Shown here: piece after piece, positions 7,818 to 49,112 of the stretch
Position numbering within the stretch: position 1 is the first letter of the stretch
Layout: each line of letters begins with the position of its first letter
Assembly (NCBI GenBank): GCA_050258935.1
Contig: JBLMZS010000042.1
Location: 12,778 to 76,777, forward strand
From: Bacteroidota bacterium
Lineage (GTDB): Bacteria > Bacteroidota > Ignavibacteria > Ignavibacteriales > SURF-24
Length of the DNA: 64,000 nt
Reading direction: 5' to 3'
Position numbers and translations under genes: made by a program
The notes under the pieces: model-generated
Database searches by the model: none
What the model was told of the DNA's origin: nothing
What the model saw: the letters and a program-made list of their open reading frames with translations, nothing else

Positions 7818-7850
7818 TACATATAGTAATAATCCGGGCACAGAGTTAAG

Positions 7851-9371: not shown

Positions 9372-10525
9372 AAATTTGCAGCGTGTTCGGTTCCTAAGAA
9401 GAGTTCACAAACCGAAAGGATTTCATCGAGCGAAATCTCTGCATCCAGATTGTCCGCAAGTGACATAACAACTTTATCTTCGGGGAAGATCACCAGATAT
9501 GCCTTGCTGCCGCATGGCGAGCCGACATGGTATACAAACCGCCGCCCGCTTTTATCAGTACCGGTACTCCAGCCGAGGCCATAACCTGTTTTAGTACCAT
9601 CTGAGAGTGTCAGCGATGTAAACAATAATTCCCTTGTAACAGGACTGATAATTTTATTCTCCAGAAGCCCATTTCCAAAACGCAGCATATCTGTACATGT
9701 CGAAACGAATCCTCCCCCGCCCCACTTATTCGAATTATCAACCTGGGGCGATTCGGTTACATTATTTTTCCACAATGTATAACAGCCTGCCTTGCCTTCA
9801 ATGGATCTGTCACTGTAATCAGGTTCAGTACATTTCATATCAAGCACATCGAATATATTCTGTTGCATGAAGTCCAGGAAATTCACGCCAGAAGCTTTTT
9901 CAATTACTTCGCTGAGAAGCGAATAGCCGTAAGTAGTATAAAGATATTTTGTGCCGGGCCTGAATAAAAGCGAATCATTCATGAATATGCTAAGAGACTC
10001 CATCACGCTTTTATATCTGATGTTGCTGGCAAATTCACCCCTGGAATAATCATAACTGCGTATACCTGCCAGATGGCCGGCCAGCTGTTTTACTGTAAAC
10101 GGATATTGTTTTTCCGGAAACTCCGGCACATAGTATCTCACCTGCTGGTTGAGATCAATTTGCCCCTTTTCATACAAGTTCCCGAGTGCCACGGAAGTAA
10201 AGGACTTTGACACACTTCCAACCCTGAATTTTGTATTCAGTTTCACCGGAGTCATTTTCTTTTTGTCAGCTATACCGAATCCCTCGCACCATATGAATGA
10301 AGAGTTCTTCGAGACCGCAACAGACAGTCCGGGAATCCTCTTTTCGTGCATATATTCCAGAATTTTGCCTCTTGCAGCAGGTATAATACCTGTATGTTTT
10401 ATTGTGAATGAGGAATCCTCATAGCTTCTCTGATCTTCCGGCAACGGAAGCACCTGACCGTAAAGAATTGAAAAGGAAAAGATAAAAGTGACGAAGCAAA
10501 GTGACAGAAACGGATGATTTTTCAT
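9368..10525 (-). CDS. Serine hydrolase / class C beta-lactamase-family protein, secreted
   Basis: 385 aa with a signal peptide. SVSKSFTS is the SxxK active-site motif. YSLLS (a YxN-like region) and a beta-lactamase/transpeptidase-like layout are present. Its stop overlaps the convergent polyferredoxin stop by 4 nt. Confidence 0.8.
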   Translation of the reverse strand: MKNHPFLSLCFVTFIFSFSILYGQVLPLPEDQRSYEDSSFTIKHTGIIPAARGKILEYMHEKRIPGLSVAVSKNSSFIWCEGFGIADKKKMTPVKLNTKFRVGSVSKSFTSVALGNLYEKGQIDLNQQVRYYVPEFPEKQYPFTVKQLAGHLAGIRSYDYSRGEFASNIRYKSVMESLSIFMNDSLLFRPGTKYLYTTYGYSLLSEVIEKASGVNFLDFMQQNIFDVLDMKCTEPDYSDRSIEGKAGCYTLWKNNVTESPQVDNSNKWGGGGFVSTCTDMLRFGNGLLENKIISPVTRELLFTSLTLSDGTKTGYGLGWSTGTDKSGRRFVYHVGSPCGSKAYLVIFPEDKVVMSLADNLDAEISLDEILSVCELFLGTEHAANF

Positions 10526-13995: not shown

Positions 13996-15279
13996 CTATA
14001 CCAAATCCTTTGCTTTCGTAACTGCCACGGGTACTTCATATACTAAGATTTTATTGACGGTGGCAGATTTTATTATATCGAGATATTTTGAAGCCAGCAT
14101 TCCCCTGTCGAAATTTTTTCGCACAAATTCATATCCGTTATTACCATGTGCTTCCCTGTCAGACGGAGTGTTTATGTAGTAGAGCAGTTTTTCGGCAAGG
14201 TCAGTCTCATTTTCCGGCTCAAAGAATAACCCGCTTTCTGATGATTCGACTATATTTCTGCTTTCACCGTTAACACCAATAAGCAGCGGTTTTCTCATTA
14301 TCATTCCTTCAAACATTTTAGAAGGAATAACTGTATTGAACAACGGATCATTTTTCAGGTGCACAATGAACACATCCAGACTTTTTATTATTGCGGGAAT
14401 CTGTGATTTTGTCTGAATCGGAAATATTTTTATATTATCCAGGTTTTTTGCTCGTATCTCTTTTTCCAGTTTTTCTCTCTCTGCTCCTGATCCAACGATA
14501 AGGTACCTGATATTCAGATGTCTTGTTATTTCTGCGGCACGTATAAGAGTACCGATGGAATGAGCCATTCCAATTGTACCTATATAGCCTGCGGCAAAGC
14601 TTTCACCCAGAAATTTTTTAATTTCAGTATTCAGCGTTTCATTATTGTCTTCGAACATATCTGTAGAGACACCGTTAAATATGACCTCAATTTTCTTTTG
14701 GTCAATTCCTTTTTCCACCAGATAATCACTGAATGAATTTGTGACCGGTACAATTCTGTCTGCAGCATTGTACAGGCTTAATTCAAGCCTCTGCAGCAGG
14801 CGGATAATTCGTCTGTTCTTTATAGCACCGACCGCAATAATAGATTCCGGCCACAGGTCGCGCAATTCAAGTATGAAAGGTTTTCTTCTTATTGATGCAG
14901 CATATCTGCCGGCCAGTGCACAAAAAAACTGGGGTGTAGTCGCAATGAGTATGTCGAATTTTATTCCGGAGATCACTACGTACATAATGGCTGCGAACAT
15001 GTAGATAATGTAGTTGAGACTCCGCAATACGAAGCCTTCATTGGGGGTTATAAATGTCCAGAGTCGTATTACGTCTATTCCGTTGTACTTTTCTTTCTGC
15101 CACAGCCTGTTCCTGTAACCCGGGAACAGTTTACCGTCGGGATGATTTGGGAAATTTGTAATTACGGTCACATCAATGTCTTTTATCCATAACCGCGCAT
15201 GTTCATACAGCCTGTTAGCCGGTGCATTGACCTCTGGCGGGAAATAGTGAGAAAAAAAAAGTACACGTTTCCTGTTCAT
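13996..15279 (-). CDS. Glycosyltransferase family 4 (WcaI/WbuB-like)
   Basis: N-terminus RVLFFSHYFPPEVNAPANRLYEHARLW and C-terminal PSKMFEGMIMRKPLLIG are typical of WcaI/WbuB-type GT-B enzymes. It abuts the next gene with no gap. Confidence 0.75.
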   Translation of the reverse strand: MNRKRVLFFSHYFPPEVNAPANRLYEHARLWIKDIDVTVITNFPNHPDGKLFPGYRNRLWQKEKYNGIDVIRLWTFITPNEGFVLRSLNYIIYMFAAIMYVVISGIKFDILIATTPQFFCALAGRYAASIRRKPFILELRDLWPESIIAVGAIKNRRIIRLLQRLELSLYNAADRIVPVTNSFSDYLVEKGIDQKKIEVIFNGVSTDMFEDNNETLNTEIKKFLGESFAAGYIGTIGMAHSIGTLIRAAEITRHLNIRYLIVGSGAEREKLEKEIRAKNLDNIKIFPIQTKSQIPAIIKSLDVFIVHLKNDPLFNTVIPSKMFEGMIMRKPLLIGVNGESRNIVESSESGLFFEPENETDLAEKLLYYINTPSDREAHGNNGYEFVRKNFDRGMLASKYLDIIKSATVNKILVYEVPVAVTKAKDLV

Positions 15280-28943: not shown

Positions 28944-31808
<2,865 letters not shown>

Positions 31809-36593: not shown

Positions 36594-37532
36594 ATGAAAG
36601 GTAATGAATTGAAAAAACTGTTATTATTTTTTATTCTTTTACCGCTCGTCTGTGTGCCTGCTCAGAAAAATGCACCGAATATTCAGAAGATTGCAGATGG
36701 TTTCAGCTTCCCCGAAGGTCCTGCCTATGACGGGAAAAATGCCATATATTTGTCCAACTGCCATGGTGACTGGATTGCACGCCTCACTCTCGACGGTAAG
36801 AAGGATACTTTTCAAACATCTTCTGCTTCTGACGTACGATTCGGTCAGACTAACGGCATGGCTTTCTTCAGTGACGGCAGTCTTTATGCTACCGACTACA
36901 AGAACGGTACTATACTGAAATTCATCCCATCCACAGGCAGGAGCGAAATTATACTCAATGGCTATAACGGCAAGAAGTTTAACAGACCTAATGACATGGC
37001 TTTCGACTGGAAGGGCAGCCTTTTCTTTACCGATCCAAGTTCATACGACGTAAACCGTCCTGATGGCTGTGTCTATATGTTTGACCGGAACAATAACGTG
37101 CTGCGCTGCGTCATTGATTCTCTCTGCTTCCCTAACGGAATAGCATTCAGTCCCGACAAAAAGTATTTGTTTGTATGTGAATCGGCAAAACAGAGGGTGC
37201 TCAGATTTGATGTCAACGGCGGTTTCCGGAATTTTTCCGTTTTCTGCGAACTGCCGGGCGGTGATCCTGACGGACTTGCATTTGATAAAAGCGGGAATCT
37301 TTATATCGCCCATTTCGGTGGCGGAAATATTTATGTCTACTCCCCTGACGGAAAGCTGAAAGAAAAATTCAGTACTCCGGGTAAAAAACCGAGCAACCTG
37401 GAATTTGCAGGCCGCGATATGAAGACACTGGTGTTTACTGAAGATGAAACAAATGCAGTATATAAAATACGGGTAAAAATTCCCGGTTTCAGACTATTCT
37501 CATCACCGGCCAGACAGCAAGCAAGCAAATAA
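36594..37532 (+). CDS. SMP-30/gluconolactonase/LRE-family beta-propeller protein, secreted
   Basis: Signal peptide. Repeated propeller blades: FPEGPAYDG, RPNDMAFDWKGSLFFTDP, FPNGIAFSPDKKYLFVCES and PDGLAFDKSGNLYIA. Confidence 0.8.
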   Translation: MKGNELKKLLLFFILLPLVCVPAQKNAPNIQKIADGFSFPEGPAYDGKNAIYLSNCHGDWIARLTLDGKKDTFQTSSASDVRFGQTNGMAFFSDGSLYATDYKNGTILKFIPSTGRSEIILNGYNGKKFNRPNDMAFDWKGSLFFTDPSSYDVNRPDGCVYMFDRNNNVLRCVIDSLCFPNGIAFSPDKKYLFVCESAKQRVLRFDVNGGFRNFSVFCELPGGDPDGLAFDKSGNLYIAHFGGGNIYVYSPDGKLKEKFSTPGKKPSNLEFAGRDMKTLVFTEDETNAVYKIRVKIPGFRLFSSPARQQASK

Positions 37533-37547
37533 ATATTTTACAGATAT

Positions 37548-37578
37548 AAAAAAAGCCGTCCGGTTCCGGACGGCTTTT
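37548..37578. terminator. Bidirectional rho-independent terminator between convergent genes
   Basis: aaaaaaa-GCCGTCCGG-tt-CCGGACGGC-tttt: a perfect GC-rich stem flanked by A and T runs. Confidence 0.85.
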
Positions 37579-37598: not shown

Positions 37599-38153
37599 CT
37601 ATCTGACAGATTCTGACATTTCCACCAGTTCCATTCCCCTCTTCAGAGCTTTTTCATTCAACGGAATAAGATGGTGGTAACGCTCCGGTAATACTTTCTT
37701 CAGACCCAGCAATATATTTTCCGTTTTTATAATGGGTTTTTTCTTCAGAAATGCACCCAGCATCACCATATTCATTATCTTTGGATTTTCCAGCTTTATC
37801 GCTTCATTTGCAGCATCGACTGCGAGTATATCAATATCCGTCCTTTGGGGAGGATTAATTATCATACTGCCTTCATATATAAGCAGTCCGCCGGGTTTCA
37901 CAGCAGATTCGAACTTTTCCATTGAAGGCTGGTTCAGAATTATGACAGTGTCAAATTTAGTCAGTATGGGCGAACTGATAGGGCTGTCGCTTATAATCGC
38001 AATGCAGTTTGCAGTTCCGCCGCGCATTTCAGGTCCGTATGAAGGCATCCAGCTGACCTCTTTATCCTCCATTACACCGGAGTAGCATAGAATCTGTCCC
38101 ATGGACAACACTCCCTGCCCGCCAAAACCGGCTATTACAATTTCTTCAGTCAT
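37599..38153 (-). CDS. 2-oxoacid:ferredoxin oxidoreductase, gamma subunit
   Basis: 184 aa. AGFGGQGVLSMGQIL and SYGPEMRGG are typical of the OFOR gamma domain. Confidence 0.8.
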   Translation of the reverse strand: MTEEIVIAGFGGQGVLSMGQILCYSGVMEDKEVSWMPSYGPEMRGGTANCIAIISDSPISSPILTKFDTVIILNQPSMEKFESAVKPGGLLIYEGSMIINPPQRTDIDILAVDAANEAIKLENPKIMNMVMLGAFLKKKPIIKTENILLGLKKVLPERYHHLIPLNEKALKRGMELVEMSESVR

Positions 38154-38209
38154 TTTATAAATCCTCTTTACTTTAATTTTTAAGGAAATACCATGAATTA
38201 TATATGCAT

Positions 38210-39034
38210 TTATTCCACAGGGGTCTTCAGATCACCCAGCGGATAATAAGGAAGCATATGTTCTTCAAGCCATTTATTTGACTGTACAGGAGTCATTTTC
38301 CAGTTTGAAGGACAGTTGGATACTATTTCAACAAAGCTCAGTCCTTTTTTCAGTTTCTGGTATTCAAACCCCTTTGTAATAGCTTTTTTAGTCTTGCGCA
38401 CGTTTCCAGGTGTATTTACCGCGCACCTTGTGGCATAATAAACACCTGGCAGTGTTGCGATAATATCTGTGATCTTCAGCGGAGAGCCCATACTGGAAAT
38501 ATCCCTGCCAAACGGTGAGGTAGTGGATTTCATACCAGGCAGCGTTGTGGGCGCCATCTGACCGCCGGTCATTCCGTATATTCCGTTGTTAATGAATATG
38601 ATCAATATATTTTCGCCTCTGTTGCAGGTGTGAATGGTCTCTCCTGTCCCTATGGCAGCCAGATCACCGTCACCCTGGTAAGTGAATACATATTTTTCGG
38701 GAAGCACTCTCTTAATGCCGGTTGCAACTGCACTTGCCCTGCCGTGAGCCGCTTCCTGCATATCAATATTCAGGTAATTATATGCAAATACAGAACATCC
38801 GACAGGTGCAACACCCACAGTCTCAGACTGTATTCCGAGTTCGTCTATAACTTCGGCAATAATCCTGTGAGCAACGCCGTGTCCGCAGCCGGGGCAATAG
38901 TGCAGGGGCGAATCAGTAAGCGCTGCCGGTCTGTTGTAGACCATATTTTCCTGGACGCATAACAGATCTTCTGCAGCGACAGGGCTGTCCGGTTCAAATA
39001 CCGGATCTTCAGCTAGCATTTTTTTCTCGTTCAT
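38210..39034 (-). CDS. 2-oxoacid:ferredoxin oxidoreductase, beta (TPP-binding) subunit
   Basis: CPGCGHG cysteine motif and the TPP motif YQGDGDLAAIG...IFINNGIYGMTGGQ. I prefer the start at MNEKKM (39034), where the ATG overlaps the alpha-subunit stop (ATGA), over the ORF-track start at 39130. Confidence 0.85.
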   Translation of the reverse strand: MNEKKMLAEDPVFEPDSPVAAEDLLCVQENMVYNRPAALTDSPLHYCPGCGHGVAHRIIAEVIDELGIQSETVGVAPVGCSVFAYNYLNIDMQEAAHGRASAVATGIKRVLPEKYVFTYQGDGDLAAIGTGETIHTCNRGENILIIFINNGIYGMTGGQMAPTTLPGMKSTTSPFGRDISSMGSPLKITDIIATLPGVYYATRCAVNTPGNVRKTKKAITKGFEYQKLKKGLSFVEIVSNCPSNWKMTPVQSNKWLEEHMLPYYPLGDLKTPVE

Positions 39035-40101
39035 ACTGTTTCTCCCATATAAATTGTTTCCAGACGTTTTACTATTTCCTCGGGAGAAGGTATAACACCG
39101 CCCATCCTTCCGTGGAATTCTACGCTGCATTTGCCGTTGACAGCGAGGCGCACATCCTCGACCATCTGACCGGCATTCATTTCAACCGTCATGATGCCTC
39201 TGACTGATCCGGCAAGATCGCTGATCTGTTTATACGGGAACGGATAGAGAGTTTTAGGTCTGAAAACTCCGACTTTTATGCCTTTGCTGCGTGCTATCTG
39301 AGCGGCCTTCACGCAGATCCTGGCTACGAGTCCGAATGCCACGAACACTATTTCAGCATCGTCGCACATAATTTTCTCGAAGCGCACTTCCTCTTCTTCA
39401 ATTTTTCTGTATTTTGCCTGAAGATGAATGTTTATGTCTTCCATCTTTTCAGGTTCGATATGCAGTGATGTAATAATATTCCTTTCTCTGTCTGCAGGTT
39501 TTCCTACAGTCGCCCATGTTTCAATCTCAGTTTTCCTGGGCACCTGTTCAAACAGATTTACTTTTTCCATCATCTGTCCCATAGCACCATCTGCGAGCAG
39601 CATGACGGGATTTTTCCACTTGAAGGCCAGTTCAAACCCCAGTTTTGTATAGTCCACCATTTCCTGGACCGTGGAGGGAGCGAGCACTATCATTTTATAA
39701 TCCCCATGTCCTCCGCCTTTAACCGCCTGAAAATAATCACCCTGAGACGGCTGAATAGTTCCCAGACCCGGGCCGCCGCGTACAACGTTAACCAGCAGGC
39801 ATGGAAGCTCTGCACAGGCTATATATGAAATACCTTCCTGCATAAGGCTGACGCCGGGAGATGATGAGGAAGTCATAACCCTTTTCCCGGTACCAGCTGC
39901 GCCATAAACCATATTTATAGCAGCTACTTCACTTTCGGCCTGCAGGACGACCATTCCCGTCCTTCTTTCAGCCTCAACGCTCAGATATTCCAGAACTTCG
40001 CTCTGCGGAGTGATAGGATAACCAAAATAGGCATCACAGCCGCTGCGTATTGCAGCTTCTGCAAGGGCCTCGTTTCCTTTCATGAGTTTTGATTCTTTCA
40101 T
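39031..40101 (-). CDS. 2-oxoacid:ferredoxin oxidoreductase, alpha subunit (VorB/KorA-like)
   Basis: LMKGNEALAEAAIRSGCDAYFGYPITPQSE N-terminus and a 356-aa length are typical of alpha subunits of four-subunit OFORs. It overlaps the delta gene by 4 nt. Confidence 0.85.
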   Translation of the reverse strand: MKESKLMKGNEALAEAAIRSGCDAYFGYPITPQSEVLEYLSVEAERRTGMVVLQAESEVAAINMVYGAAGTGKRVMTSSSSPGVSLMQEGISYIACAELPCLLVNVVRGGPGLGTIQPSQGDYFQAVKGGGHGDYKMIVLAPSTVQEMVDYTKLGFELAFKWKNPVMLLADGAMGQMMEKVNLFEQVPRKTEIETWATVGKPADRERNIITSLHIEPEKMEDINIHLQAKYRKIEEEEVRFEKIMCDDAEIVFVAFGLVARICVKAAQIARSKGIKVGVFRPKTLYPFPYKQISDLAGSVRGIMTVEMNAGQMVEDVRLAVNGKCSVEFHGRMGGVIPSPEEIVKRLETIYMGETV

Positions 40102-40385
40102 TGTTTCACCATTACTGTTAAGTCGTTTTGGACATTTGTTATTGTTGCGACCGGCTCATTTTTGGTGAGCGTCTTTCTGTACACCCTGATTATACCTTCA
40201 GGGCATACAAGAGCGCAGTTAGTGCACCCCGTACAATTGTCTTCGATTCTTACGATGTAATGATATCCTTTGGCGTTGATATTTCGAGACAACTCAAGTG
40301 AGTGCTGCGGACAGGCGGCTGCACACAGCTCGCATCCCTTGCATTTCTCGATATCCACCAGGATATCACCTTTTACTTTTGCCAT
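40098..40385 (-). CDS. 2-oxoacid:ferredoxin oxidoreductase, delta subunit (2x[4Fe-4S] ferredoxin)
   Basis: 95 aa with CKGCELCAAACP and CTGCTNCALVCP. Confidence 0.8.
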   Translation of the reverse strand: MAKVKGDILVDIEKCKGCELCAAACPQHSLELSRNINAKGYHYIVRIEDNCTGCTNCALVCPEGIIRVYRKTLTKNEPVATITNVQNDLTVMVKQ

Positions 40386-40459
40386 GATACTGCTCCATAA
40401 TTTGGATATTTGCGGAACAATTTATTTAACCCGCCGCACCGCAAAGGATCTTTTGGACC

Positions 40460-41362
40460 CTAAAGGCCGGCATGTTTGTCGGCATGGTATGAACTTCTTA
40501 CCAAAGGGGCACTTTCAACGGCTTTGAAACCCAGTTTGAGTCCTTCGGACTTGTACATCCGGAATTCATCCGGGGTAACGTACCTGTCGACCGGCAGATG
40601 CACCTTGGTCGGCTGAAGATACTGTCCAATAGTCAGAATGTCACATCCATGTTCGATCAAATCCTGCATTAGTTCGAGAACCTCTTCCGGTTTTTCCCCG
40701 ATACCCACCATAATACCGCTTTTCGTAGTCAGATTCCTGCTCTTGAACCATCGTATCAGTTCCAGGCTCCTTTCATACTTCGCCTGGGGCCGCACTGCAT
40801 GGTAGAGTCGGTTGACGGTTTCCAGGTTGTGATTCAGTATATCGGGCGGATTCTGCATAATTATCTCAAAAGCCATTTCTGAGCCCTTGAAATCGGGTAT
40901 CAGAATCTCCACAGTGCAACCCGGAACCTGCTGCCTGATGACTCTGACGGTTTCTGCAAATATTGATGCACCACCGTCTTTCAGTTCATCGCGGTTGACC
41001 GAAGTAATTACTGCGTGCTTCAGCTGCAGTATTTCCACTGCTTCAGCTACGCGCCTCGGTTCATCCAGATCCAGCTCATTTGGTATGCCAAGCTTTACAT
41101 TGCAGAAGCCGCAGCTGCGTGTGCATGTATCGCCGAGTATCATAAACGTTGCTGTACGGTTGTTCCAGCACTCGCCCATGTTGGGACACTTTGCCTCCTG
41201 GCATACGGTATTGAGTCTGGAATCCTTTACAAGCTGGTTCAGGTCCGAAAAATTCTGGCCTATAGGCAGCTTCACCTTGAGCCAGTCTGGTCTTTTACCC
41301 AGAGGTTCTTTGTTTTTTTCTATTTGTTCTTTATATTCTCTCTGATGCTGATTAATTACCAT
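40460..41362 (-). CDS. lipA: Lipoyl synthase
   Basis: CQEAKCPNMGECW (auxiliary cluster CX4CX5C) and CTRSCGFCNV (radical-SAM CX3CX2C). The C-terminus ...RSSYHA is typical of LipA. Confidence 0.95.
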   Translation of the reverse strand: MVINQHQREYKEQIEKNKEPLGKRPDWLKVKLPIGQNFSDLNQLVKDSRLNTVCQEAKCPNMGECWNNRTATFMILGDTCTRSCGFCNVKLGIPNELDLDEPRRVAEAVEILQLKHAVITSVNRDELKDGGASIFAETVRVIRQQVPGCTVEILIPDFKGSEMAFEIIMQNPPDILNHNLETVNRLYHAVRPQAKYERSLELIRWFKSRNLTTKSGIMVGIGEKPEEVLELMQDLIEHGCDILTIGQYLQPTKVHLPVDRYVTPDEFRMYKSEGLKLGFKAVESAPLVRSSYHADKHAGL

Positions 41363-41486
41363 ATTTGCCTTTCTATTTTCAATATTTATCCAGGACGGAA
41401 TTTTCAGGTACGATGTTTATTGAAACTTTTGCACGGTTAAATCTAACTAAATTCTTCGGGTTTTAAAACACCATTGCAAATTTTTC

Positions 41487-42950
41487 TCAAAAAACCCCAG
41501 CCCAGTCCGTATTTTCCAGCGTGCTCTTTATCATGGCTAAAAACCTTCCGCCCAGCATGCCGTCTATTATCCTGTGATCGTGACTAAGCGACAGATACAT
41601 CATAGATCTTATGGCAATGGTTTCGATACCGCCGATTTCCATAACAACCGCTTTTCTGGTTACCGCACCTGTACCCAGTATTGCAACTTCAGGCTGATTT
41701 ATTACCGGTGTGCCGAACAAAGTCCCGAACGGGCCGTAGTTCGTTATTGTAAATGTACCTCCGGTAATGTCATCCGGAGTGAGTTTTCTGCTTCTGGCCT
41801 TTTCGCTCAGTGAGGATACCTCATATGCGATACCCTTCAGGTTTTTCATATCAGCATTTTTTATATTCGGGACTATAAGTCCGTCGGGTTCAATAGCTAC
41901 AGCAATGCCCAGATTGATATTTTTCTTAAGTACAATATTAGTGCCATCTATCGATGAATTGACCACAGGATGCTCTTTTAACGCTCTAATGCAGGCGTAT
42001 GCAATAAAGGGCATATAGGTGAGTTTAAGATTTTCTCTTTTCAGGTAAAGGTCTTTATTGTTTTTGATAAAATCATAGATACGGGTTACATCCGCCTCAA
42101 CCACACCTGCCACATGCACTGATGTATCACGGCTGCTGATCATGTGATTCATAATGCGTATGCGCATAGGATCCATCGGGCTCGACTCAGATGCAGATAC
42201 TGCTGCCGGTTCCGGTTTTGATTCTTTTCCGTAAGTTTGACTTTTCTCTTTCGGTTCCTCAGTCTCAGGAATTATTTCGTTATACGCATTTTCTATGTCT
42301 GAATAAACCGATTCAGAAATTTCCTTATCCGCAGTACCGGTTTCCTTTTTTGCATCCCTGTTTTCAATATACTTCAGTATATCATTTTTAGTAACCCTGC
42401 CGCCGTTTCCTGTACCTTTCAGGTTTTTCAGTTCATTTATCGTCACATTCTCTTTTTCGGCTATGTTCATTACCAGCGGAGAAAAGAATGAAGATCCTAA
42501 ACGCGGTTCTGGCTTTTGTGAAGCATCTGGTTTTTGTGAAGCATCTGGTTTTTGTGAAGCATCTGGCTTTTGTGAAGCAATTGTCTTTAATGCAGTTTCG
42601 GCCTGTATCGTATTTTCTGACTCTTCAGGAACGGTATCAGATACTTCTGCCGAAGGTTTTTGGGGTGTTATTTCCTCCTGTTCAGGGTATGTTTCAGAGG
42701 ATGATTTTTCATCTGAGGTCTCTATTGTCGCCACAACTGTATCAACCTCGACAGTCTGCTGTTCAGCTACGAGTATTTTTTCGAGTATTCCCTCTGCCGG
42801 AGAAGGTATTTCAGTGTCAACTTTATCGGTACTGATCTCGAAAATAATTTCGTCTTTTCTAACCGTGTCACCTTCTTTTTTGTGCCACTTTATTATTGTT
42901 CCTTCATTTATGCTCTCACCCATTTTCGGCATTATTACATTTATTTTCAT
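41487..42950 (-). CDS. Dihydrolipoamide acyltransferase (E2) of a 2-oxoacid dehydrogenase complex, probably branched-chain type
   Basis: Lipoyl domain with EISTDKVDTEIPSP, a peripheral-subunit-binding domain (SPLVMNIAEKENV...GTGNGGRVTKNDI), and a catalytic domain with SLSHDHRIIDG. Confidence 0.9.
   Translation of the reverse strand: MKINVIMPKMGESINEGTIIKWHKKEGDTVRKDEIIFEISTDKVDTEIPSPAEGILEKILVAEQQTVEVDTVVATIETSDEKSSSETYPEQEEITPQKPSAEVSDTVPEESENTIQAETALKTIASQKPDASQKPDASQKPDASQKPEPRLGSSFFSPLVMNIAEKENVTINELKNLKGTGNGGRVTKNDILKYIENRDAKKETGTADKEISESVYSDIENAYNEIIPETEEPKEKSQTYGKESKPEPAAVSASESSPMDPMRIRIMNHMISSRDTSVHVAGVVEADVTRIYDFIKNNKDLYLKRENLKLTYMPFIAYACIRALKEHPVVNSSIDGTNIVLKKNINLGIAVAIEPDGLIVPNIKNADMKNLKGIAYEVSSLSEKARSRKLTPDDITGGTFTITNYGPFGTLFGTPVINQPEVAILGTGAVTRKAVVMEIGGIETIAIRSMMYLSLSHDHRIIDGMLGGRFLAMIKSTLENTDWAGVF
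42511..42580. repeat. 18-bp in-frame tandem repeat (about 3.9 copies) inside the E2 linker
   Basis: Plus-strand units are ggcttttgtgaagcatct / ggtttttgtgaagcatct / ggtttttgtgaagcatct / ggcttttgtgaagcaa. Translated on the minus strand, this gives the peptide repeat (SQKPDA)x3 followed by SQKPEP. Confidence 0.95.
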
Positions 42951-43260
42951 ACCCTCCCTCCGGAATAATTGTTTTGGATACTTCTAGTGAACCGATGTAA
43001 ATTCTGCCACCGTTTTTTTACCGGATGCCCGAATTCTGGCAAATTCCGGTTTACAAATTGAAAACAGACCAATGATTCATTAGTTGTACTTTAATTAATT
43101 GTGTCTCACGTTACACCCGACATTTCTGCGCACACCTACAGCGTGCACTTGCGGGTGGGTGTTCCTTCTATGATATTCATATCTTCAGTCCGTATCGGGA
43201 CTGATATATGTTCGCATAACCACCACTCATTTTTCTCCGCACTGTAATTGCGGGGAGGAT

Positions 43261-45375
43261 TTAATACTGGAGCAGTTCCTTCAGTTCCCGGTATATCCTT
43301 TCGCGTGTTGGCAGCACCTGGTTCTCCAGCACCGGATGATACGGAATGTGTGCATCAGCAGCTGCAATGCGTCTTATGGGAGCATCGAGATATCTGAAGC
43401 AGTTTTCTGCAATACGTGCTGCAATTTCACCTCCGAAGCCTCCGGTCAGCATGTCTTCGTGTATTACAGCTGCCTTTCCGCATTTCCTTACAGACTCATA
43501 AATCGTGTCTTCATCCAGCGGTATAAGTGTCCTCAGGTCTATGATCTCTACCGAGAATCCTTCCTGTGCAAGTCTTGAAGCTGCAAAACCCGCTTCGTGC
43601 ACCATGGCTCCATAGGTAATCACTGACAGGTCATTTCCAGCCCTGACATTTTTTGCTTTCCCGAATTCCACTAGATAATCCGTGCCTGGTTCCGGAGATG
43701 ATGAATAACTCTGCCGGTATAATCCTTTATGTTCCAGGAACATGACCGGATCGTTTAGTCTTATCGCAGTTTTCAGCAGGCCTTTTGCATCTGCGGCATT
43801 AGATGGGTATGCAACGAGCAGTCCAGGTATGTGTGTAAAAACCCCTTCTATATTCTGACTGTGGAATAATCCTCCGTGTATATACCCTCCTACTGCGACA
43901 CGAAATACGACCGGGGCAGGCCATTTGTTATTGGATCGGTAGCGGTATGTAGCAATTTCATCCCTGATCTGCATAAATGCGGGCCATATATAATCTCCGA
44001 ATTGTATTTCCACTACTGGTTTGAGTCCTGCAAGCGCCATTCCTGCTGCAACGCCTGCGATACTTGCCTCTGCAAGAGGTGAATTGAATACGCGGGAATT
44101 CCCATAAATAGTGGACAGGCCCTTGGTTGCAGAAAATACGCCGCCTTTTCCGTCTGCAATATCTTCGCCGAAAATGTATATGCTGTCATTTATTGCCATT
44201 TCTTCGTGCAATGCATGATTTACCGCGTCCACCATAACAATTTTCTTTCCATCGGGAGCAGTCTTTTCATATTCCATTTGCGGCGGATTGCTCATCAGCT
44301 CCGTTACATATCTTAGTGCAGTCGATGCTTCGGGGTCCTTAGCTTTCATCGCCTGAGCAGCAGCTGTTTCTACCATAGCCTCTGCCTCAGATTTCATTTG
44401 CCCGAAATCATTCTCTGTAATTATTTTTTTCTGTATCAGATACGCAGAGAACTGACTAATAGGGCATTTTTCGAAATCGCCCTGAATTTCCTCAGCAGCC
44501 CTGTATTTTTTCTGATCGTCAGAGGAAGAATGCGACATTAGTCTGACTACATCTGCTTCAATCAGAGCCGGTCCCTTCAACTGTCTTGCCCGCCTGAATG
44601 CAGCCTGAGCGGCCCTGTAGCACAACATGAAGTTAGAACCGTTCACCCTAAGACGCAGAAGATTGTCATACCCTTTCATCATCTCCGATATTGAAGCATT
44701 TTTTCCGCCGCACTGGTTTTCGACCGGTACTGAAATGGCATAGCGGTTGTTCTGGACTAAAAATACCACCGGCAGCCTTTCCCTGCTGGCCCAGTTGACT
44801 GCCTCATGGAATTCACCCTGACTTGTGGTCCCTTCGCCGCTGCTCACATAAGTCACCGCTTCAATTCCATTCTTTTTATTTGCCAGTGCAGTCCCGACTG
44901 CCTGCAGGAACTGTGTGCCGGTAGGACTCGACTGAGTGGGAATGTTCAGCTCACGGTATCCCCAGTGACATGGCATCTGTCTGCCGCCGGACATCGGGTC
45001 TTCAGCTTTTGCCAGCAGCGACAGGAATATTTCCTCCGGTTTTACACCCATCGAAAGCATAAACGCCAGATCGCGGTAATATGGGAAAGCCCAGTCTATG
45101 CCGGGCTTCATTGAAAGCGCACATGCAACCTGCGGGGCTTCGTGTCCCGCTCCTGCAATATGGAAAAAAGATTTTCCCTGTTTCAGCAGATTCATGCATT
45201 TTTTGTCAATTTCCCTGGATACATACATCAGCTGTAATGACCTGTATAATTCATCCTTCGACATTCCGCCAAACAATCCGTTATTATTCCCGGCACCGCG
45301 TAAATCCTCAGTATAAGACATCTTATCCAGTATTTCGTTATAGTTCGTTGCATTATCCATTTTAAGCCCTGTCAA
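43261..45375 (-). CDS. 2-oxoacid dehydrogenase E1 component, fused alpha/beta subunits (branched-chain 2-oxoacid dehydrogenase-like)
   Basis: 704 aa. The N-half has the TPP motif SGEGTTSQGEFHEAVNWAS...FLVQNNRYAIS. The C-half is transketolase-like (IYIFGEDIADGKGGVFSAT...FNSPLAEASI). It starts 1 nt after the lipB stop. Confidence 0.85.
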   Translation of the reverse strand: MTGLKMDNATNYNEILDKMSYTEDLRGAGNNNGLFGGMSKDELYRSLQLMYVSREIDKKCMNLLKQGKSFFHIAGAGHEAPQVACALSMKPGIDWAFPYYRDLAFMLSMGVKPEEIFLSLLAKAEDPMSGGRQMPCHWGYRELNIPTQSSPTGTQFLQAVGTALANKKNGIEAVTYVSSGEGTTSQGEFHEAVNWASRERLPVVFLVQNNRYAISVPVENQCGGKNASISEMMKGYDNLLRLRVNGSNFMLCYRAAQAAFRRARQLKGPALIEADVVRLMSHSSSDDQKKYRAAEEIQGDFEKCPISQFSAYLIQKKIITENDFGQMKSEAEAMVETAAAQAMKAKDPEASTALRYVTELMSNPPQMEYEKTAPDGKKIVMVDAVNHALHEEMAINDSIYIFGEDIADGKGGVFSATKGLSTIYGNSRVFNSPLAEASIAGVAAGMALAGLKPVVEIQFGDYIWPAFMQIRDEIATYRYRSNNKWPAPVVFRVAVGGYIHGGLFHSQNIEGVFTHIPGLLVAYPSNAADAKGLLKTAIRLNDPVMFLEHKGLYRQSYSSSPEPGTDYLVEFGKAKNVRAGNDLSVITYGAMVHEAGFAASRLAQEGFSVEIIDLRTLIPLDEDTIYESVRKCGKAAVIHEDMLTGGFGGEIAARIAENCFRYLDAPIRRIAAADAHIPYHPVLENQVLPTRERIYRELKELLQY

Positions 45376-45376
45376 T

Positions 45377-46153
45377 TTATATAGAAGCAGCTACAAGTTC
45401 AGCGATCCGGTTTTTGACATCCGCTGTACTGCATGCAATTCTATCGTATGAAAAAATATGTTTAAAGTTATCGAGCAGTTTTTCCTTTACATTCTCAACG
45501 GTAATATCCCTCTGAAGTTCCTTATTCAAAGAAGTTACTTCTTTGTCACGGATTCCGCAAGGTATAATTCCGCCAAAATAATCCAGATCAGTAGACACAT
45601 TGAGCGCAAATCCGTGCATGGTTATCCACCGGCTAATCTTTATGCCTATTGCCGCAATTTTCCTGTTTTCGATCCATACACCTGTCAGCCCTTCAATGCG
45701 TCCGGTTTTAAGGCCGTATTGGCCGAGTGTTCTTATAATTACTTCTTCGAGGGATCTGAGATACAGGTGAGCATCTGCATGCCATTCATTCAGGTTTATT
45801 ACCGGATAGCCTACTATCTGTCCCGGACCGTGGTATGTAATATCACCGCCTCTGTCAATATCAAATACCGATATTCCCTTTTCTCTGAGATATTCTGGTG
45901 TACATGTTAGGTTTGACTTATCTGCTGTTTTCCCGAGAGTATATGTGTGAGGGTGTTCAAGCAGCAGAAGTGTATCGTTAACGTTTCCGCGGTGTCTTTC
46001 TTCAAACAGGTGTTTCTGCAGCTTCCATGCCGTGTCATAATCAATCATACCAGTATCGGAATAGTCGAGCACCCTTTCCTGTACTGTTATTCCTTTTAGT
46101 TCCTGTTCCTGAAGAACAGACAGTTCTTCATTAAATGTGGATAGCTTCTCCAT
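45377..46153 (-). CDS. lipB: Lipoyl(octanoyl) transferase
   Basis: LLLLEHPHTYTLG, RGGDITYHGPGQIVGYP, KIAAIGIKISRWITMHGFALNV are canonical LipB blocks. Confidence 0.9.
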   Translation of the reverse strand: MEKLSTFNEELSVLQEQELKGITVQERVLDYSDTGMIDYDTAWKLQKHLFEERHRGNVNDTLLLLEHPHTYTLGKTADKSNLTCTPEYLREKGISVFDIDRGGDITYHGPGQIVGYPVINLNEWHADAHLYLRSLEEVIIRTLGQYGLKTGRIEGLTGVWIENRKIAAIGIKISRWITMHGFALNVSTDLDYFGGIIPCGIRDKEVTSLNKELQRDITVENVKEKLLDNFKHIFSYDRIACSTADVKNRIAELVAASI

Positions 46154-47537
46154 ATGCAGCAGCTGCCGCCTCCATAATTGCTTCTGAAAACGTTGGATGT
46201 GAATGTATTGTTTTTATAATTGATTCAGCCGTAGCTCCATGTGATTTTGCAACGACAGCTTCTTCAAGTATTTCAGTTGCAGAAGAACCGATGATGTGTG
46301 CACCCAGCAGTTCTCCGTATTTCGCGTCAAATATCAGTTTTACAAATCCGTCCCTTTCACCGGCTGCAAACGCCCGGCCTGATGCAGTAAACGGGAATTT
46401 ACCGATTTTTATTTCCAGTCCCGCCTCGCGCGCGGCGTGTTCGGTCATACCGATACTTGCGACCTGAGGCTGACAGAATGTACAAGCCGGAATCGATCCG
46501 TAATCGATGTCCGGTACATTGAGTCCGCTCAGTTTTTCGACACAATTAATTGCCTCGGCACTCGCAACGTGTGCAAGGAGCGGAGGTCCGATGACGTCCC
46601 CAACCGCATATATGTTCTGGTTTTCAGTCATATAGTCCGACTTATTAACACTTATAAATCCCTTTTCTGTTTTTACCCGGGTATTCTCCAGACCGATACC
46701 ATCTATATTCCCAGTGACTCCGGCAGCAGAGAGCACTATTTTACCGTTCAGTATTTTTTTGCCTTCCGGTGTTTCAACAGAAACGGTAACGCTTCCGTTT
46801 TTTACCGTTTCAGTTTCCAGTACTCTGCTGTTTAATAGTACCTCTATTCCCTGTTTTCTGAATTCACGCAGTAATAGACGGCTAACTTCCTCGTCTTCAA
46901 GAGGCAGTACGTTACTTAGAACTTCAATTATTGTAACTTTAGTTCCCAAAGTATTATAAAAAAATGCAAATTCCACACCTATTGCACCGGCTCCAACGAT
47001 TATCATGCTTTCAGGAATCTCTTTCAGCGCAAGAGCCTCTGTACTTGTGATCACTTTCATTCTGTCTACAGGAACTGATGGCAGGATTCTGGCTCCGGCA
47101 CCAGTCGCAATAATCAGTTTTTCAGCCTTTACTTCCCTGCTTTCACCATTGTTCTTTATTTCCAGAGTTACCGGGCCGGATGCGTTTATTATTCGCCCTG
47201 TACCTTTTATATTCTCAACTCCGTTTTTTTTCAACAAACCGTCCACATTTTTTGAAATTTTATCCGAAATGTCGCGGCTTCTCCTGATGATTTTAGAAAA
47301 ATCCACGGAATAATTTTCTATGCTGATGCCGAATTCTGAAGAATGCTTTATATTGTGCAGTATTTCCGCGTTCTTCAGCAGTGCTTTGGTCGGAATACAG
47401 CCCCAGTTCAGGCAGATGCCTCCTGACTTGTCCTTTTCAATCACAGCAGTGCTGAATCCCAGCTGAGCCGCCCTGATGGCGGCGACATATCCTCCGGGTC
47501 CTGCACCCAGTATGGCTACATCATAGCTATTGTTCAT
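46131..47537 (-). CDS. lpdA: Dihydrolipoyl dehydrogenase (E3)
   Basis: FAD motif ILGAGPGGYVAA, redox disulfide GGICLNWGCIPTK, NAD motif VGAGAIGVEFA, and C-terminal HSHPTFSE. Confidence 0.95.
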   Translation of the reverse strand: MNNSYDVAILGAGPGGYVAAIRAAQLGFSTAVIEKDKSGGICLNWGCIPTKALLKNAEILHNIKHSSEFGISIENYSVDFSKIIRRSRDISDKISKNVDGLLKKNGVENIKGTGRIINASGPVTLEIKNNGESREVKAEKLIIATGAGARILPSVPVDRMKVITSTEALALKEIPESMIIVGAGAIGVEFAFFYNTLGTKVTIIEVLSNVLPLEDEEVSRLLLREFRKQGIEVLLNSRVLETETVKNGSVTVSVETPEGKKILNGKIVLSAAGVTGNIDGIGLENTRVKTEKGFISVNKSDYMTENQNIYAVGDVIGPPLLAHVASAEAINCVEKLSGLNVPDIDYGSIPACTFCQPQVASIGMTEHAAREAGLEIKIGKFPFTASGRAFAAGERDGFVKLIFDAKYGELLGAHIIGSSATEILEEAVVAKSHGATAESIIKTIHSHPTFSEAIMEAAAAAYGEAIHI

Positions 47538-47756
47538 GTATCATTCCATATAATTGACACGTCATCTTTTATTTCCAATTTAATACAATATACGTAATAA
47601 ACAAACCACTTCCTTTTTGACGGATGGGCTGGCAGTATTCAATGCTATATCATTTCTCTCGGACCTGTAATTCAAACTTTAAATAAAACTTTGAATTATT
47701 GATTTTTTGATTTATAATTTACTTTATGATATAATATTTTTACGAAGGAGGAATAT

Positions 47757-49112
47757 ATGCCCACACTCATGGTCAGCATTTCTGGGATAAGGGGGATTGT
47801 TGGAGACGGACTTGATCCTGAGGTTCTTGTTAAATATACTTCAGCATATGCAGATTTCTGCGGCAAAGGAAGTGTTGTAGTCGGCCGCGATGCACGCATC
47901 TCCGGCAAAATGGTTATGGATATTGTTGCCGGGACGCTTCTGGCAAAAGGAATAGATGTAATTGACATCGGAATAGTACCTACCCCGACAGTACAGTACA
48001 CGGTAAAGACGCTGGGAGCAAAAGGCGGAATTGCCATTTCTGCAAGTCATAATCCAAATCAATGGAATGCCCTGAAACTGATCAATTCTACGGGACAGTT
48101 TCTGAGTCCGGAGGAGAATCAGGTGTTTACAAAGATAATTGCCGAAGGCTCAAACGGTTACGTCAGCTGGCAGGAGCTGGGGAAATACAGCGATTTTGAG
48201 GAAGGTCTTAAAAGGCACATGGATGACGTCCTGAAACTGAATTATATAGACGTGGATGCCATAAGGAAAAGGAAGTTCAGGGTAGTTGCCGACTGTGTCA
48301 ACGGAGCTGGTGTATACTGCATACCTGACCTGCTTCGCCGTTTCGGATGCGATGTCATTGAGCTGAACTGCGAGAAAACCGGAATATTCCCGAGGCTTCC
48401 GGAGCCGCTTCCTGAAAACCTTACAGAAACCATGAAAGCCGTCAGAGAACACAACGCCGAGATAGGCATTGTAGTGGATCCGGATGTGGACAGGCTGGTG
48501 CTTATTACAGAAAAAGGTGAACCTTTCGGAGAAGAAAATACAATTGCCCAGGCGGTGAAATTCATACTGTCAAAAGAAAAAGGCAGCGTATGTGTTAACC
48601 TTTCGACAACCCGTGCAGTTGATGATATTGCATCTGCAAGCGGCTGCACTGTGTTCCGTTCTCCTGTAGGTGAAGCCAATGTTGTAAAACTGATGAAGGA
48701 GACCGGTGCAATTATAGGTGGAGAAGGCAGCGGCGGTGTAATTTATCCCGCACTGCACTACGGCAGGGATGCACTCGTTGGTATTGCAATTACTCTGCAG
48801 CACCTGCTTGAATCAGGCGGGACAGCAAGCGCTCTGAAGGAATCGCTTCCCCGCTATTTTATTGCCAAAAGAAAAATTGAACTGGGTGCAGCAGATCCTG
48901 ACAAGATAATAAGCTGCCTGAAAGAAAAATACAGTGCGGAAAAAATAAATACTGACGACGGGCTAAGGATTGATTTCAATGACCACTGGGTACATTTCAG
49001 GAAATCCAATACAGAACCGATCATCCGCTGCCTTACTGAAGCTAGTGATGAAGCTGCTGCTATGGAGTATATTGACAGGTACTTCGGAGAAATTAAGGCG
49101 ATGCTCCAGTAA
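47757..49112 (+). CDS. glmM: Phosphohexomutase, probably phosphoglucosamine mutase (Bacteroidota-type GlmM)
   Basis: SISGIRGIVG N-terminus, active-site SASHNPNQWN, metal loop VDPDVDR, and GEGSGG. A strong SD (aggagg) lies 8 nt upstream. Substrate specificity is inferred only. Confidence 0.7.
   Translation: MPTLMVSISGIRGIVGDGLDPEVLVKYTSAYADFCGKGSVVVGRDARISGKMVMDIVAGTLLAKGIDVIDIGIVPTPTVQYTVKTLGAKGGIAISASHNPNQWNALKLINSTGQFLSPEENQVFTKIIAEGSNGYVSWQELGKYSDFEEGLKRHMDDVLKLNYIDVDAIRKRKFRVVADCVNGAGVYCIPDLLRRFGCDVIELNCEKTGIFPRLPEPLPENLTETMKAVREHNAEIGIVVDPDVDRLVLITEKGEPFGEENTIAQAVKFILSKEKGSVCVNLSTTRAVDDIASASGCTVFRSPVGEANVVKLMKETGAIIGGEGSGGVIYPALHYGRDALVGIAITLQHLLESGGTASALKESLPRYFIAKRKIELGAADPDKIISCLKEKYSAEKINTDDGLRIDFNDHWVHFRKSNTEPIIRCLTEASDEAAAMEYIDRYFGEIKAMLQ

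Follow-up and report, generated by a model that had tools for sequence, protein, structure and literature searches.

It is common for facultative anaerobes to use an NAD-linked complex when they grow with oxygen and to have an oxygen-sensitive enzyme in its place for anoxic growth, and in Escherichia coli pyruvate dehydrogenase (PDH) on one side and pyruvate formate-lyase/YdbK on the other form such an oxygen-dependent isofunctional pair. In the metabolism of branched-chain 2-oxoacids, the bkd operon of Bacillus subtilis, ptb-bcd-buk-lpdV-bkdAA-bkdAB-bkdB, depends on SigL (sigma-54) and BkdR and is induced by isoleucine and valine. Here we analysed a block of nine minus-strand genes (37599-47537) in a 64,000-nucleotide stretch of contig JBLMZS010000042.1 from an uncultured member of the Ignavibacteriales related to Melioribacter (assembly GCA_050258935.1), hereafter called the window. 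In this block a lipoate-dependent 2-oxoacid dehydrogenase complex, together with its lipoylation enzymes, is followed by a 2-oxoacid:ferredoxin oxidoreductase (OFOR). Compared with the E. coli pair, these two routes lie next to each other on one strand, and their likely substrate is not pyruvate.

The B. subtilis system, whose host makes branched-chain fatty acids, is likewise a lipoate-dependent complex of the E1 alpha/beta type that includes a dihydrolipoyl dehydrogenase (E3) of its own, and its sigma-54-type promoter in branched-chain oxoacid metabolism has a possible counterpart in relatives of the window organism, where a sigma-54-like element precedes the OFOR module. It differs in having separate E1 alpha and beta genes, no lipA or lipB and no OFOR, and in its order E3-E1-E2 with ptb-bcd-buk upstream, three genes that are absent from the window block. 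On the OFOR side, the plan of delta, alpha, beta and gamma subunits is that of Clostridium sporogenes PorA, C. difficile Vor and C. scatologenes HpdDEFG (for PorA and HpdE as judged from their published descriptions), and Helicobacter OorDABC is also a four-subunit enzyme with the same gene order, delta-alpha-beta-gamma. Deletion of PorA abolishes the production of isobutyrate, 2-methylbutyrate and isovalerate in C. sporogenes (10.1101/401489), and among four-subunit bacterial OFORs the 2-oxoisovalerate (VOR) and HpdDEFG enzymes form a cluster separate from that of the 2-oxoglutarate (KOR) enzymes (PMC13285125). The clostridial clusters adjoin genes for a phosphate acyltransferase and for an acyl kinase or ligase, through which ATP is harvested (PMC13285125), whereas the window block has none. 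The pairing of the two modules has stood annotated but undiscussed in the genome of Melioribacter roseus since 2012-2013, and our literature search found no paper on it.

The initial annotation of the window, made from the sequence alone, had read the block as two alternative routes from 2-oxoacids to acyl-CoA with different electron acceptors, and our analysis agrees with it on this point. We propose with moderate confidence that the two modules act on shared, branched-chain-derived substrates, the NAD-linked one when oxic and the ferredoxin-linked one when anoxic, and that they are separately controlled in most relatives. The first module, lpd-lipB-E1-E2-lipA, would convert a 2-oxoacid and CoA into acyl-CoA and CO2 with electrons passing to NAD+, LipB and LipA building the lipoyl arm on E2, and the second, OFOR delta-alpha-beta-gamma, would carry out the same conversion as a thiamine pyrophosphate (TPP) and iron-sulfur enzyme with electrons passing to ferredoxin. 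Their shared substrates would most likely be hydrophobic 2-oxoacids derived from branched-chain amino acids, and the resulting branched short acyl-CoAs could serve as primers for iso and anteiso fatty acids and could also be fermented. The NAD-linked complex would probably be used in oxygen respiration, and the ferredoxin-linked enzyme in anoxic fermentation. In most relatives the modules would form two adjacent but separate units, the OFOR having its own sigma-54-type promoter and a leader terminator that is read through, and in the window organism the leader would have been deleted, so that the OFOR genes are probably transcribed together with lipA and the dehydrogenase.

Gene content and layout of the block

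Gene identities were assigned by Pfam domains and by NCBIfam models with curated cut-offs (in bits). All nine open reading frames (ORFs) were found where the initial annotation had placed them, with the expected domains and in the minus-strand order lpd, lipB, fused E1 alpha/beta, E2, lipA, and OFOR delta, alpha, beta and gamma. In the dehydrogenase module, lpd (46131-47537) encodes E3 with Pyr_redox_2 and Pyr_redox_dim domains and scores 538.9 with TIGR01350 (cut-off 408.8), and lipB (45377-46153) encodes a lipoyl(octanoyl) transferase with an LplA-B_cat domain that matches NF010925 (235.3 vs 155) and TIGR00214 (188 vs 83.6). The E1 gene (43261-45360) encodes a TPP-dependent 2-oxoacid decarboxylase of 699 aa from its ATG, and the succession of E1_dh (49-350), Transket_pyr (378-554) and Transketolase_C (572-694) domains marks it as a genuine alpha/beta fusion. 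E2 (41487-42950) is a dihydrolipoyl acyltransferase with one lipoyl domain (Biotin_lipoyl 5-76, E3_binding 155-192, 2-oxoacid_dh 254-481), and lipA (40460-41362) encodes a radical-SAM lipoyl synthase (TIGR00510 386.9 vs 310.25; NF004019 424.9 vs 203). All Pfam domains of an E1/E2/E3 complex are therefore present at full length, with Lpd above the TIGR01350 cut-off, and the matches of LipB to NF010925 and of LipA to TIGR00510, both at equivalog level, provide the lipoylation pathway. The presence of lipA and lipB inside the complex operon had been presented as telling, which we do not uphold, as lipoylation genes adjacent to E2 are a known pattern that is also seen in the dlaT-lipB-lipA neighbourhood of Mycobacterium.

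In the OFOR module, delta (40098-40385) is a 2x[4Fe-4S] ferredoxin-like protein with Fer4 matches and eight cysteines in two CxxCxxCxxxCP motifs. Alpha (39031-40101) has POR_N and PFOR_II domains and a YPITP motif, and belongs to the VorB family, scoring 549.5 with NF005507 (cut-off 399) over positions 2-351 of the 352 in that profile, compared to 227 with the OorA-type model NF007206 (cut-off 579) and 84 with the archaeal VOR alpha model NF006232 (cut-off 646); NF005507 is a model of the 'subfamily' type, and the name VorB is thus no proof of substrate. Beta (38210-39034, 274 aa), the subunit with TPP and the proximal cluster, has a TPP_enzyme_C domain and the motif GCSVF, and gamma (37599-38153) matches Pfam POR with 115.6 bits. 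These features of the delta, alpha, beta and gamma genes are those of a four-subunit OFOR.

The tight spacing described earlier was largely recovered. The lpd and lipB genes overlap by 23 nt, the delta/alpha and alpha/beta pairs by 4 nt each (with the beta start of the public gene call, 39034), and the other gaps are of at most 125 bp (E2-lipA 124, lipA-delta 74, beta-gamma 56), the one larger gap being that of 310 bp between E1 and E2. The 1-nt gap reported between lipB and E1 holds only with a TTG start at 45375, while the public call starts E1 at the ATG at 45360 and leaves 16 nt; the start of lipB is itself uncertain, since the window protein has 258 aa compared to 229-241 aa in relatives. 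The strong terminator said to close the block was found at 37551-37578 (minus strand) as an intrinsic terminator with a 12-bp stem, 7 G-C pairs, a 4-nt loop and a T run. It is palindromic, with an A run as well as the T run, and could also be used by the convergent gene at 36594-37532. Inside the block there was no further convincing terminator on the minus strand. Contigs assembled from two different samples (L001 and L002 in our numbering of loci) show the identical arrangement down to the 74-bp junction between lipA and delta, which indicates that the block is not an assembly artefact.

At its upstream end, the block is separated by a divergent intergenic region (47538-47756), presumed from ORF layout and sequence to hold the block promoter, from a plus-strand phosphoglucomutase/phosphomannomutase gene (47757-49112), which is also the divergent neighbour in relatives including M. 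roseus (MROS_2254). A search for sigma-54 motifs found none in this region or in any intergenic part of the block, and an Rfam search of the block gave nothing near gathering threshold. The 310-nt E1-E2 spacer (42951-43260, minus strand) is non-coding and holds several strong hairpins (minimum free energy -91.2 kcal/mol, z = -3.71 vs shuffles). It is specific to the window organism, the E1-E2 gap of the closest relative, L087, being 78 bp, and it had no Rfam match. Two origins for it were tried and rejected: a tblastn search with the N-termini of the M. roseus and L082 proteins, for a decayed first lipoyl domain, matched only the window E2's own start, and no second copy of a mobile repeat was found in the window or in any fetched relative locus. 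Most relatives have an E2 of 506-534 aa with two lipoyl domains, and the single domain of the window E2 is also found in Rosettibacter (409 aa) and L087 (474 aa). Within the window E2 gene, Tandem Repeats Finder identified a tandem repeat of 18 bp x 4 (42508-42579, minus strand; score 130, 96% matches), which is translated as (SQKPDA)x4 in the flexible linker. About 6 kb from the block lies a fused glycine-cleavage P protein gene (954 aa; 28944-31808, minus strand), whose position is kept in the closest relative (L086 8836-11718); the glycine-cleavage system is another lipoate-dependent system, and lipA and lipB may serve the P protein too.

Conservation among relatives and protein abundance in Melioribacter roseus

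In order to survey synteny, the nine window proteins were mapped onto 79 loci found through E1, with one genome per species. The nearest named relatives by E1 are Ignavibacteriota, mostly Melioribacteraceae, with E1 identities of at most 71%. Of the Ignavibacteriota loci, 11 had an E1 at least 63% identical and were covered for 5 kb or more beyond lipA, and the block, complete or without lipB, was present in 9 of these 11 (L004, L006, L007, L008, L012, L013, L046, L047, L052); in the other two (L014, L048) the OFOR genes are not next, and they are also absent at the more distant L018 (55%). The adjacency on which the initial annotation was built is thus kept within the clade, of which the order lpd-lipB-E1-E2-lipA is typical. 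In the same E1-based scan, fused-E1 loci from Actinomycetota, Acidobacteriota, Chloroflexota and Alphaproteobacteria included none with an adjoining OFOR. Loci retrieved through OFOR alpha also carried the block, namely L087 (the closest, with 83% alpha identity), M. roseus P3M-2, Melioribacter sp. Ez-97, Rosettibacter firmus and strain 4148-Me. In Melioribacter, Rosettibacter and strain 4148-Me the block has no lpd gene, and these organisms presumably rely on one E3 in common with their PDH complex (MROS_0857).

The distance between lipA and delta in relatives ranges from about 130 to 2963 bp, and across relatives the two modules are therefore neighbours that form no obligatory operon. In L006, an opposite-strand gene with a nucleotidyltransferase domain and a small partner ORF, resembling a toxin-antitoxin pair, lie between lipA and delta (14761-15248, minus strand), and in L082 the same place (7017-9262, plus strand) is taken by a gene for a 142-aa protein and one for a 605-aa protein that has a DnaJ-like Cys-rich domain. 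Cultured Melioribacter and Rosettibacter have a PAS histidine kinase upstream of lipB, and such kinases were seen flanking the block at 1687-3288 in L084 and L085, at 2608-4227 in L088 and at 2117-3736 in L089. A large PAS kinase and a response regulator of the sigma-54-activator type directly follow OFOR gamma in L082 (12606-17390). These proteins are candidates for the sensing of oxygen or redox state at the locus; no PAS kinase was found near the block in the window.

M. roseus is a proven facultative anaerobe (PMC3534657). Its locus (CP003557, 2.65 Mb region) matches the locus tags MROS_2253-2270 gene for gene, in the order aminotransferase, phosphomannomutase, kinase, Ogg, lipB, E1, E2, lipA and OFOR delta, alpha, beta and gamma, on to a tRNA synthetase. 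From lipB to OFOR gamma (MROS_2257-2264 in strain P3M-2) the order is that of the window, with the same divergent phosphomannomutase neighbour and protein identities of 48-79%. M. roseus differs from the window in that its block lacks lpd and is preceded by genes for a PAS histidine kinase and an Ogg glycosylase, that its E2, which has two lipoyl domains, starts 12 bp after E1, and that its lipA-delta spacer of 278 bp contains a sigma-54-like promoter, a small ORF and a terminator, none of which the window has.

Published label-free proteomics of this species, expressed as emPAI values, compared maltose-fermenting with acetate-respiring (aerobic) cells (Gavrilov et al. 2017, PMC5492636, Table S2). 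E1 (MROS_2258) gave 0.045/0.058/0.044 in fermentation and 0.435/0.359/0.395 in aerobic cells, an 8.1-fold increase (adjusted p 0.003), and E2 (MROS_2259) gave 0.095/0.122/0.126 and 0.353/0.275/0.254, a 2.6-fold increase (adjusted p 0.027) (PMC5492636). In the opposite direction, OFOR alpha (MROS_2262) gave 0.153/0.127/0.097 in fermentation and 0/0/0 in aerobic cells (adjusted p 0.012), while OFOR delta (MROS_2261) was detected in one of three samples in each condition, a difference that is not significant (PMC5492636). The authors of that study made no comment on these four proteins (PMC5492636). This pattern of E1/E2 and OFOR alpha parallels that of the pyruvate enzymes: the separate three-gene PDH complex of M. 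roseus (MROS_0857-0859) was 1.4- to 2-fold higher in oxic cells, and its pyruvate:ferredoxin oxidoreductase (PFOR, MROS_2663) was found in fermenting cells only. The two-subunit 2-oxoglutarate:ferredoxin oxidoreductase KorAB (MROS_1977/78) was present in both conditions. Since M. roseus has separate PDH, KorAB and PFOR enzymes, a third substrate class is left for the enzyme pair of the block.

The suggestion that the dehydrogenase and the OFOR alternate with redox state in a facultative anaerobe is made plausible by these data, which directly support an oxic/anoxic alternation in a relative. Set against them is that the measurements were made on membrane fractions, under two conditions that differ not in oxygen alone but also in carbon source (yeast extract being low in both, 0.1 g/l in fermentation), that within the OFOR alpha alone, and not delta, changed significantly, and that M. 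roseus proteins are only 48-79% identical to those of the window, which is without the leader found there. The opposite abundance shifts argue against a simple co-expression of the two halves.

Substrates of the two enzymes

The claim that both systems act on branched-chain 2-oxoacids is plausible: the VorB-type alpha, the Phe of beta and, by a narrow margin, the ranking of E1 alpha agree with it, and E2, which lies nearer to the E2s of PDH and 2-oxoglutarate dehydrogenase (OGDH), does not. In the OFOR, the solved 2-oxoglutarate:ferredoxin oxidoreductases (8YS5 and the Magnetococcus enzyme 6N2N) have the same fold and give the best solved match for the window beta. They differ in having Arg (8YS5_C, 6N2N_B) where the window has the Phe of GCSVF, a position that also aligns with Lys49 of StOFOR1 from Sulfolobus, in which the K49I exchange abolishes 2-oxoglutarate activity (PMC5020499). 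The basic residue after the beta GCS that is the mark of 2-oxoglutarate:ferredoxin oxidoreductases is absent from the window protein, and the 12 relatives with a readable beta motif have Phe or Leu at the same position. OorA- and OorB-type models are far below their cut-offs for the window proteins, as are the archaeal VOR and POR models for alpha. In M. roseus, OFOR alpha was undetected in acetate-respiring cells, in which KorAB was present. As judged from these comparisons, which for the window are of sequence, there is moderately good evidence that 2-oxoglutarate is disfavoured and a hydrophobic substrate favoured, and this evidence does not separate branched-chain from aromatic 2-oxoacids. 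Public records name the OFOR in two incompatible ways, as a 2-oxoglutarate enzyme and as VorB, and the pocket residue of beta argues against the former name, which is a lesson for annotation.

For the dehydrogenase, E1 alpha was scored against solved structures, giving 171 bits for the Thermus branched-chain enzyme (1UM9_A), 137 for human BCKDHA, 129 for the Pseudomonas putida branched-chain enzyme, 127 for Geobacillus PDH and 87 for human PDH. All three solved branched-chain E1 alpha chains thus outscore the two solved PDH E1 alpha chains; the E1 beta halves do not discriminate branched-chain 2-oxoacid dehydrogenase from PDH.

A number of observations count against a branched-chain role for the pair. 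The E1 alpha chains of P. putida and Geobacillus score almost alike (129 vs 127). E2 is best matched by the PDH-type 9Y7V_D (306 bits), followed by OGDH E2s at about 200, and the branched-chain E2s are lower (Listeria 161, bovine 112, Mycobacterium tuberculosis 91 bits); its best NCBIfam match is of the actinobacterial SucB type, below cut-off, and neither E1 nor E2 reaches any NCBIfam cut-off. The OFOR is named as a 2-oxoglutarate enzyme both by JGI and in the original annotation of M. roseus. The fatty-acid part of the proposal depends on iso-C15:0 and anteiso-C15:0 being major acids of Ignavibacteria, which is taken by us from species descriptions, and no source was found that confirms it. 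The VorB family, moreover, includes an arylpyruvate enzyme (PMC13285125). The evidence for a branched-chain dehydrogenase is thus weaker than that for the OFOR, and the best indirect argument is one of elimination, through the separate PDH and ferredoxin-linked 2-oxoglutarate enzymes of M. roseus.

Control of the OFOR genes and alternative explanations

In all 15 relatives examined, a hairpin with a T run lies upstream of delta and ends 18-41 nt before the start codon. Its lower stem (AAAGGTTA...TAACCTTT) is common to the relatives, with the exception of L013, which has a wholly different stem sequence, and its upper stem shows compensatory changes, with C-G in L087, L004 and L046 and T-A elsewhere. 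The hairpin and the ribosome-binding site lie too close together for a promoter to fit between them, so that transcription of the OFOR genes must traverse the hairpin. Further upstream, 12 of the 15 relatives have a sigma-54-like element, CTGGCACG-N4-TTT[C/T], at -145 to -152 from the delta start (-174 in L013). TGGCAC is invariant in 11 of these loci and reads TGGCAT in L089, and the -12 part reads TTTC or TTTT compared to the canonical TTGC (-24 TGGCAC, 5-nt spacing). The element is missing in the subclade of the window (the window, L087, L004 and L046). A motif resembling TTTCTCA-N(4-6)-TGAAAA, noticed by eye only about 230-260 nt upstream of delta in L088, L089, L007, L006 and L082, could be a putative activator binding site.

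Between the sigma-54-like element and the hairpin lies a small ORF, which starts at about -105 (up to -138 in L087, L004, L046 and L013) and in most copies has a purine-rich, ribosome-binding-site-like stretch just upstream. Its hydrophobic cores are conserved (ILVEI, LALIEIL, KIIAQILL, EIINIIII), with synonymous third-position changes such as GTA/GTT/GTG and CTA/TTA/CTT. Ile, Leu and Val together make up a mean fraction of 0.46 compared to 0.31 +/- 0.125 in shuffles, with p ~0.03-0.6 for single sequences, so that the enrichment is suggestive. The same layout as in M. roseus (L085, leader at ~9569-9696) was seen in L082, L084, L088, L089, L012, L013, L006-L008, L047 and L052. Classical leader-peptide attenuation was considered and rejected: ORF and terminator occur in 15 of 15 relatives, but with the first 12 codons masked no antiterminator of the ilv/leu/trp type was predicted in their leaders. 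The small ORF never stops more than 9 nt short of the hairpin, and its stop codon can lie beyond it; a ribosome on the ORF would therefore cover the 5' arm of the hairpin, which fits ribosome occlusion. The leader of the relatives is thus a candidate translation-coupled attenuator, and an Rfam search of the OFOR leaders of L082 and L007 found nothing near gathering threshold and no known riboswitch or leader. In the window, the 74-nt lipA-delta spacer (40386-40459, minus strand) has no sigma-54-like promoter, small ORF or terminator hairpin, and its folding is unremarkable (z = -0.19).

These observations bear on the idea of a single nine-gene operon and regulon, in which the two halves are made together and any switch is made at the level of enzyme activity or stability. 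The short gaps, two overlapping pairs and single strong end terminator of the window, and its featureless lipA-delta spacer, speak for such an operon, which the initial annotation had proposed. In relatives, the hairpin before delta and the sigma-54-like element about 145-174 nt upstream, the foreign genes that separate lipA from delta in L082 and L006, in one case on the opposite strand, and the opposite protein changes in M. roseus stand against it, and in the window itself the structured E1-E2 spacer could hold an internal signal. We consider this explanation unlikely. The one regulon is accordingly not supported in the relatives, and a single unit is compatible with the data in the window only, where neither an internal terminator nor a sigma-54 motif was found; there, a single nine-gene transcript is a reasonable reading of the sequence, and the window has the most fused version of the locus. 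That the modules might instead have different substrates and lie together incidentally, a pyruvate or broad-range dehydrogenase beside a 2-oxoglutarate:ferredoxin oxidoreductase of the tricarboxylic acid (TCA) cycle, would explain the '2-oxoglutarate ferredoxin oxidoreductase' of JGI and the original GenBank record, the best NCBIfam names of delta (KorD/OorD types) and beta (OorB type), the best solved match of beta and the position of E2 nearest to PDH and OGDH E2s. The delta and beta matches, however, are far below cut-offs (e.g. 129 vs 364 bits) while alpha is above that of VorB, beta is without the Arg or Lys of 2-oxoglutarate-using enzymes, M. roseus has PDH and KorAB of its own, cells respiring acetate, in which the TCA cycle must operate, have no detectable OFOR alpha, and the adjacency is kept in 9 of 11 related genomes, all of which makes incidental adjacency improbable.

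Two further alternatives accept a hydrophobic substrate for the OFOR. It might run mainly in reverse, with reduced ferredoxin carboxylating isobutyryl-, isovaleryl- and 2-methylbutyryl-CoA to give valine, leucine and isoleucine, a synthase role that has been described for rumen Bacteroides and Prevotella and proposed for the VOR of methanogens. OFORs are reversible, and the methanogen VOR has been proposed to run in this direction (PMC13285125); the occurrence of OFOR alpha only in strongly reducing fermentation with very little yeast extract (0.1 g/l) would suit it, as would an Ile/Leu/Val-rich small ORF as a means of branched-chain amino acid control in relatives. The absence of a predicted antiterminator that would turn the genes on upon stalling at Ile, Leu and Val codons, a leader geometry suited to the contrary response (genes on during fast translation), and the lack of an acyl-CoA ligase or kinase in the block leave the reverse role with a low probability. 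Alternatively, the OFOR might act on aromatic 2-oxoacids such as phenylpyruvate and hydroxyphenylpyruvate, in which case the modules would not be isofunctional. The VOR-like cluster includes HpdDEFG, a characterised hydroxyphenylpyruvate:ferredoxin oxidoreductase, and VORs have arylpyruvate side activity (PMC13285125), and the Phe/Leu pocket residue says only that the substrate is hydrophobic, but the small ORF of the relatives is rich in Ile, Leu and Val and not in aromatic residues, and there are no aromatic-pathway genes near the block. We regard an aromatic role as very improbable.

We return to the proposal of two modules, separately controlled in most relatives, with shared branched-chain-derived substrates. 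A more specific proposal, which we put forward only tentatively, is that the VorB-type OFOR operon of Melioribacteraceae is under a new kind of leader composed of a sigma-54 promoter, an Ile/Leu/Val-rich small ORF and a ribosome-occluded terminator. When branched-chain amino acids are plentiful, fast translation of the small ORF would allow the polymerase to read into the OFOR genes, and stalling of the ribosome on the small ORF would leave them off. Combined with an oxygen-controlled dehydrogenase, this would amount to a substrate-sensing, redox-partitioned twin route, of which the window organism would be a natural deletion variant, its OFOR genes captured by the lipA/dehydrogenase transcript.

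The enzymes are standard members of their families, and their arrangement is a lineage-specific synteny of modest interest; the candidate sigma-54 promoter with the small-ORF/terminator leader in relatives might be the one element that is new. If both modules act on branched-chain substrates, oxygen-tolerant and oxygen-sensitive routes to the same branched acyl-CoAs lie side by side in these genomes, and this would explain how facultative anaerobes whose membrane lipids are branched-chain keep up lipid synthesis and the fermentation of amino acids when conditions change between oxic and anoxic. M. roseus, which is cultured and for which proteomic data exist, would be a convenient system for this switch.

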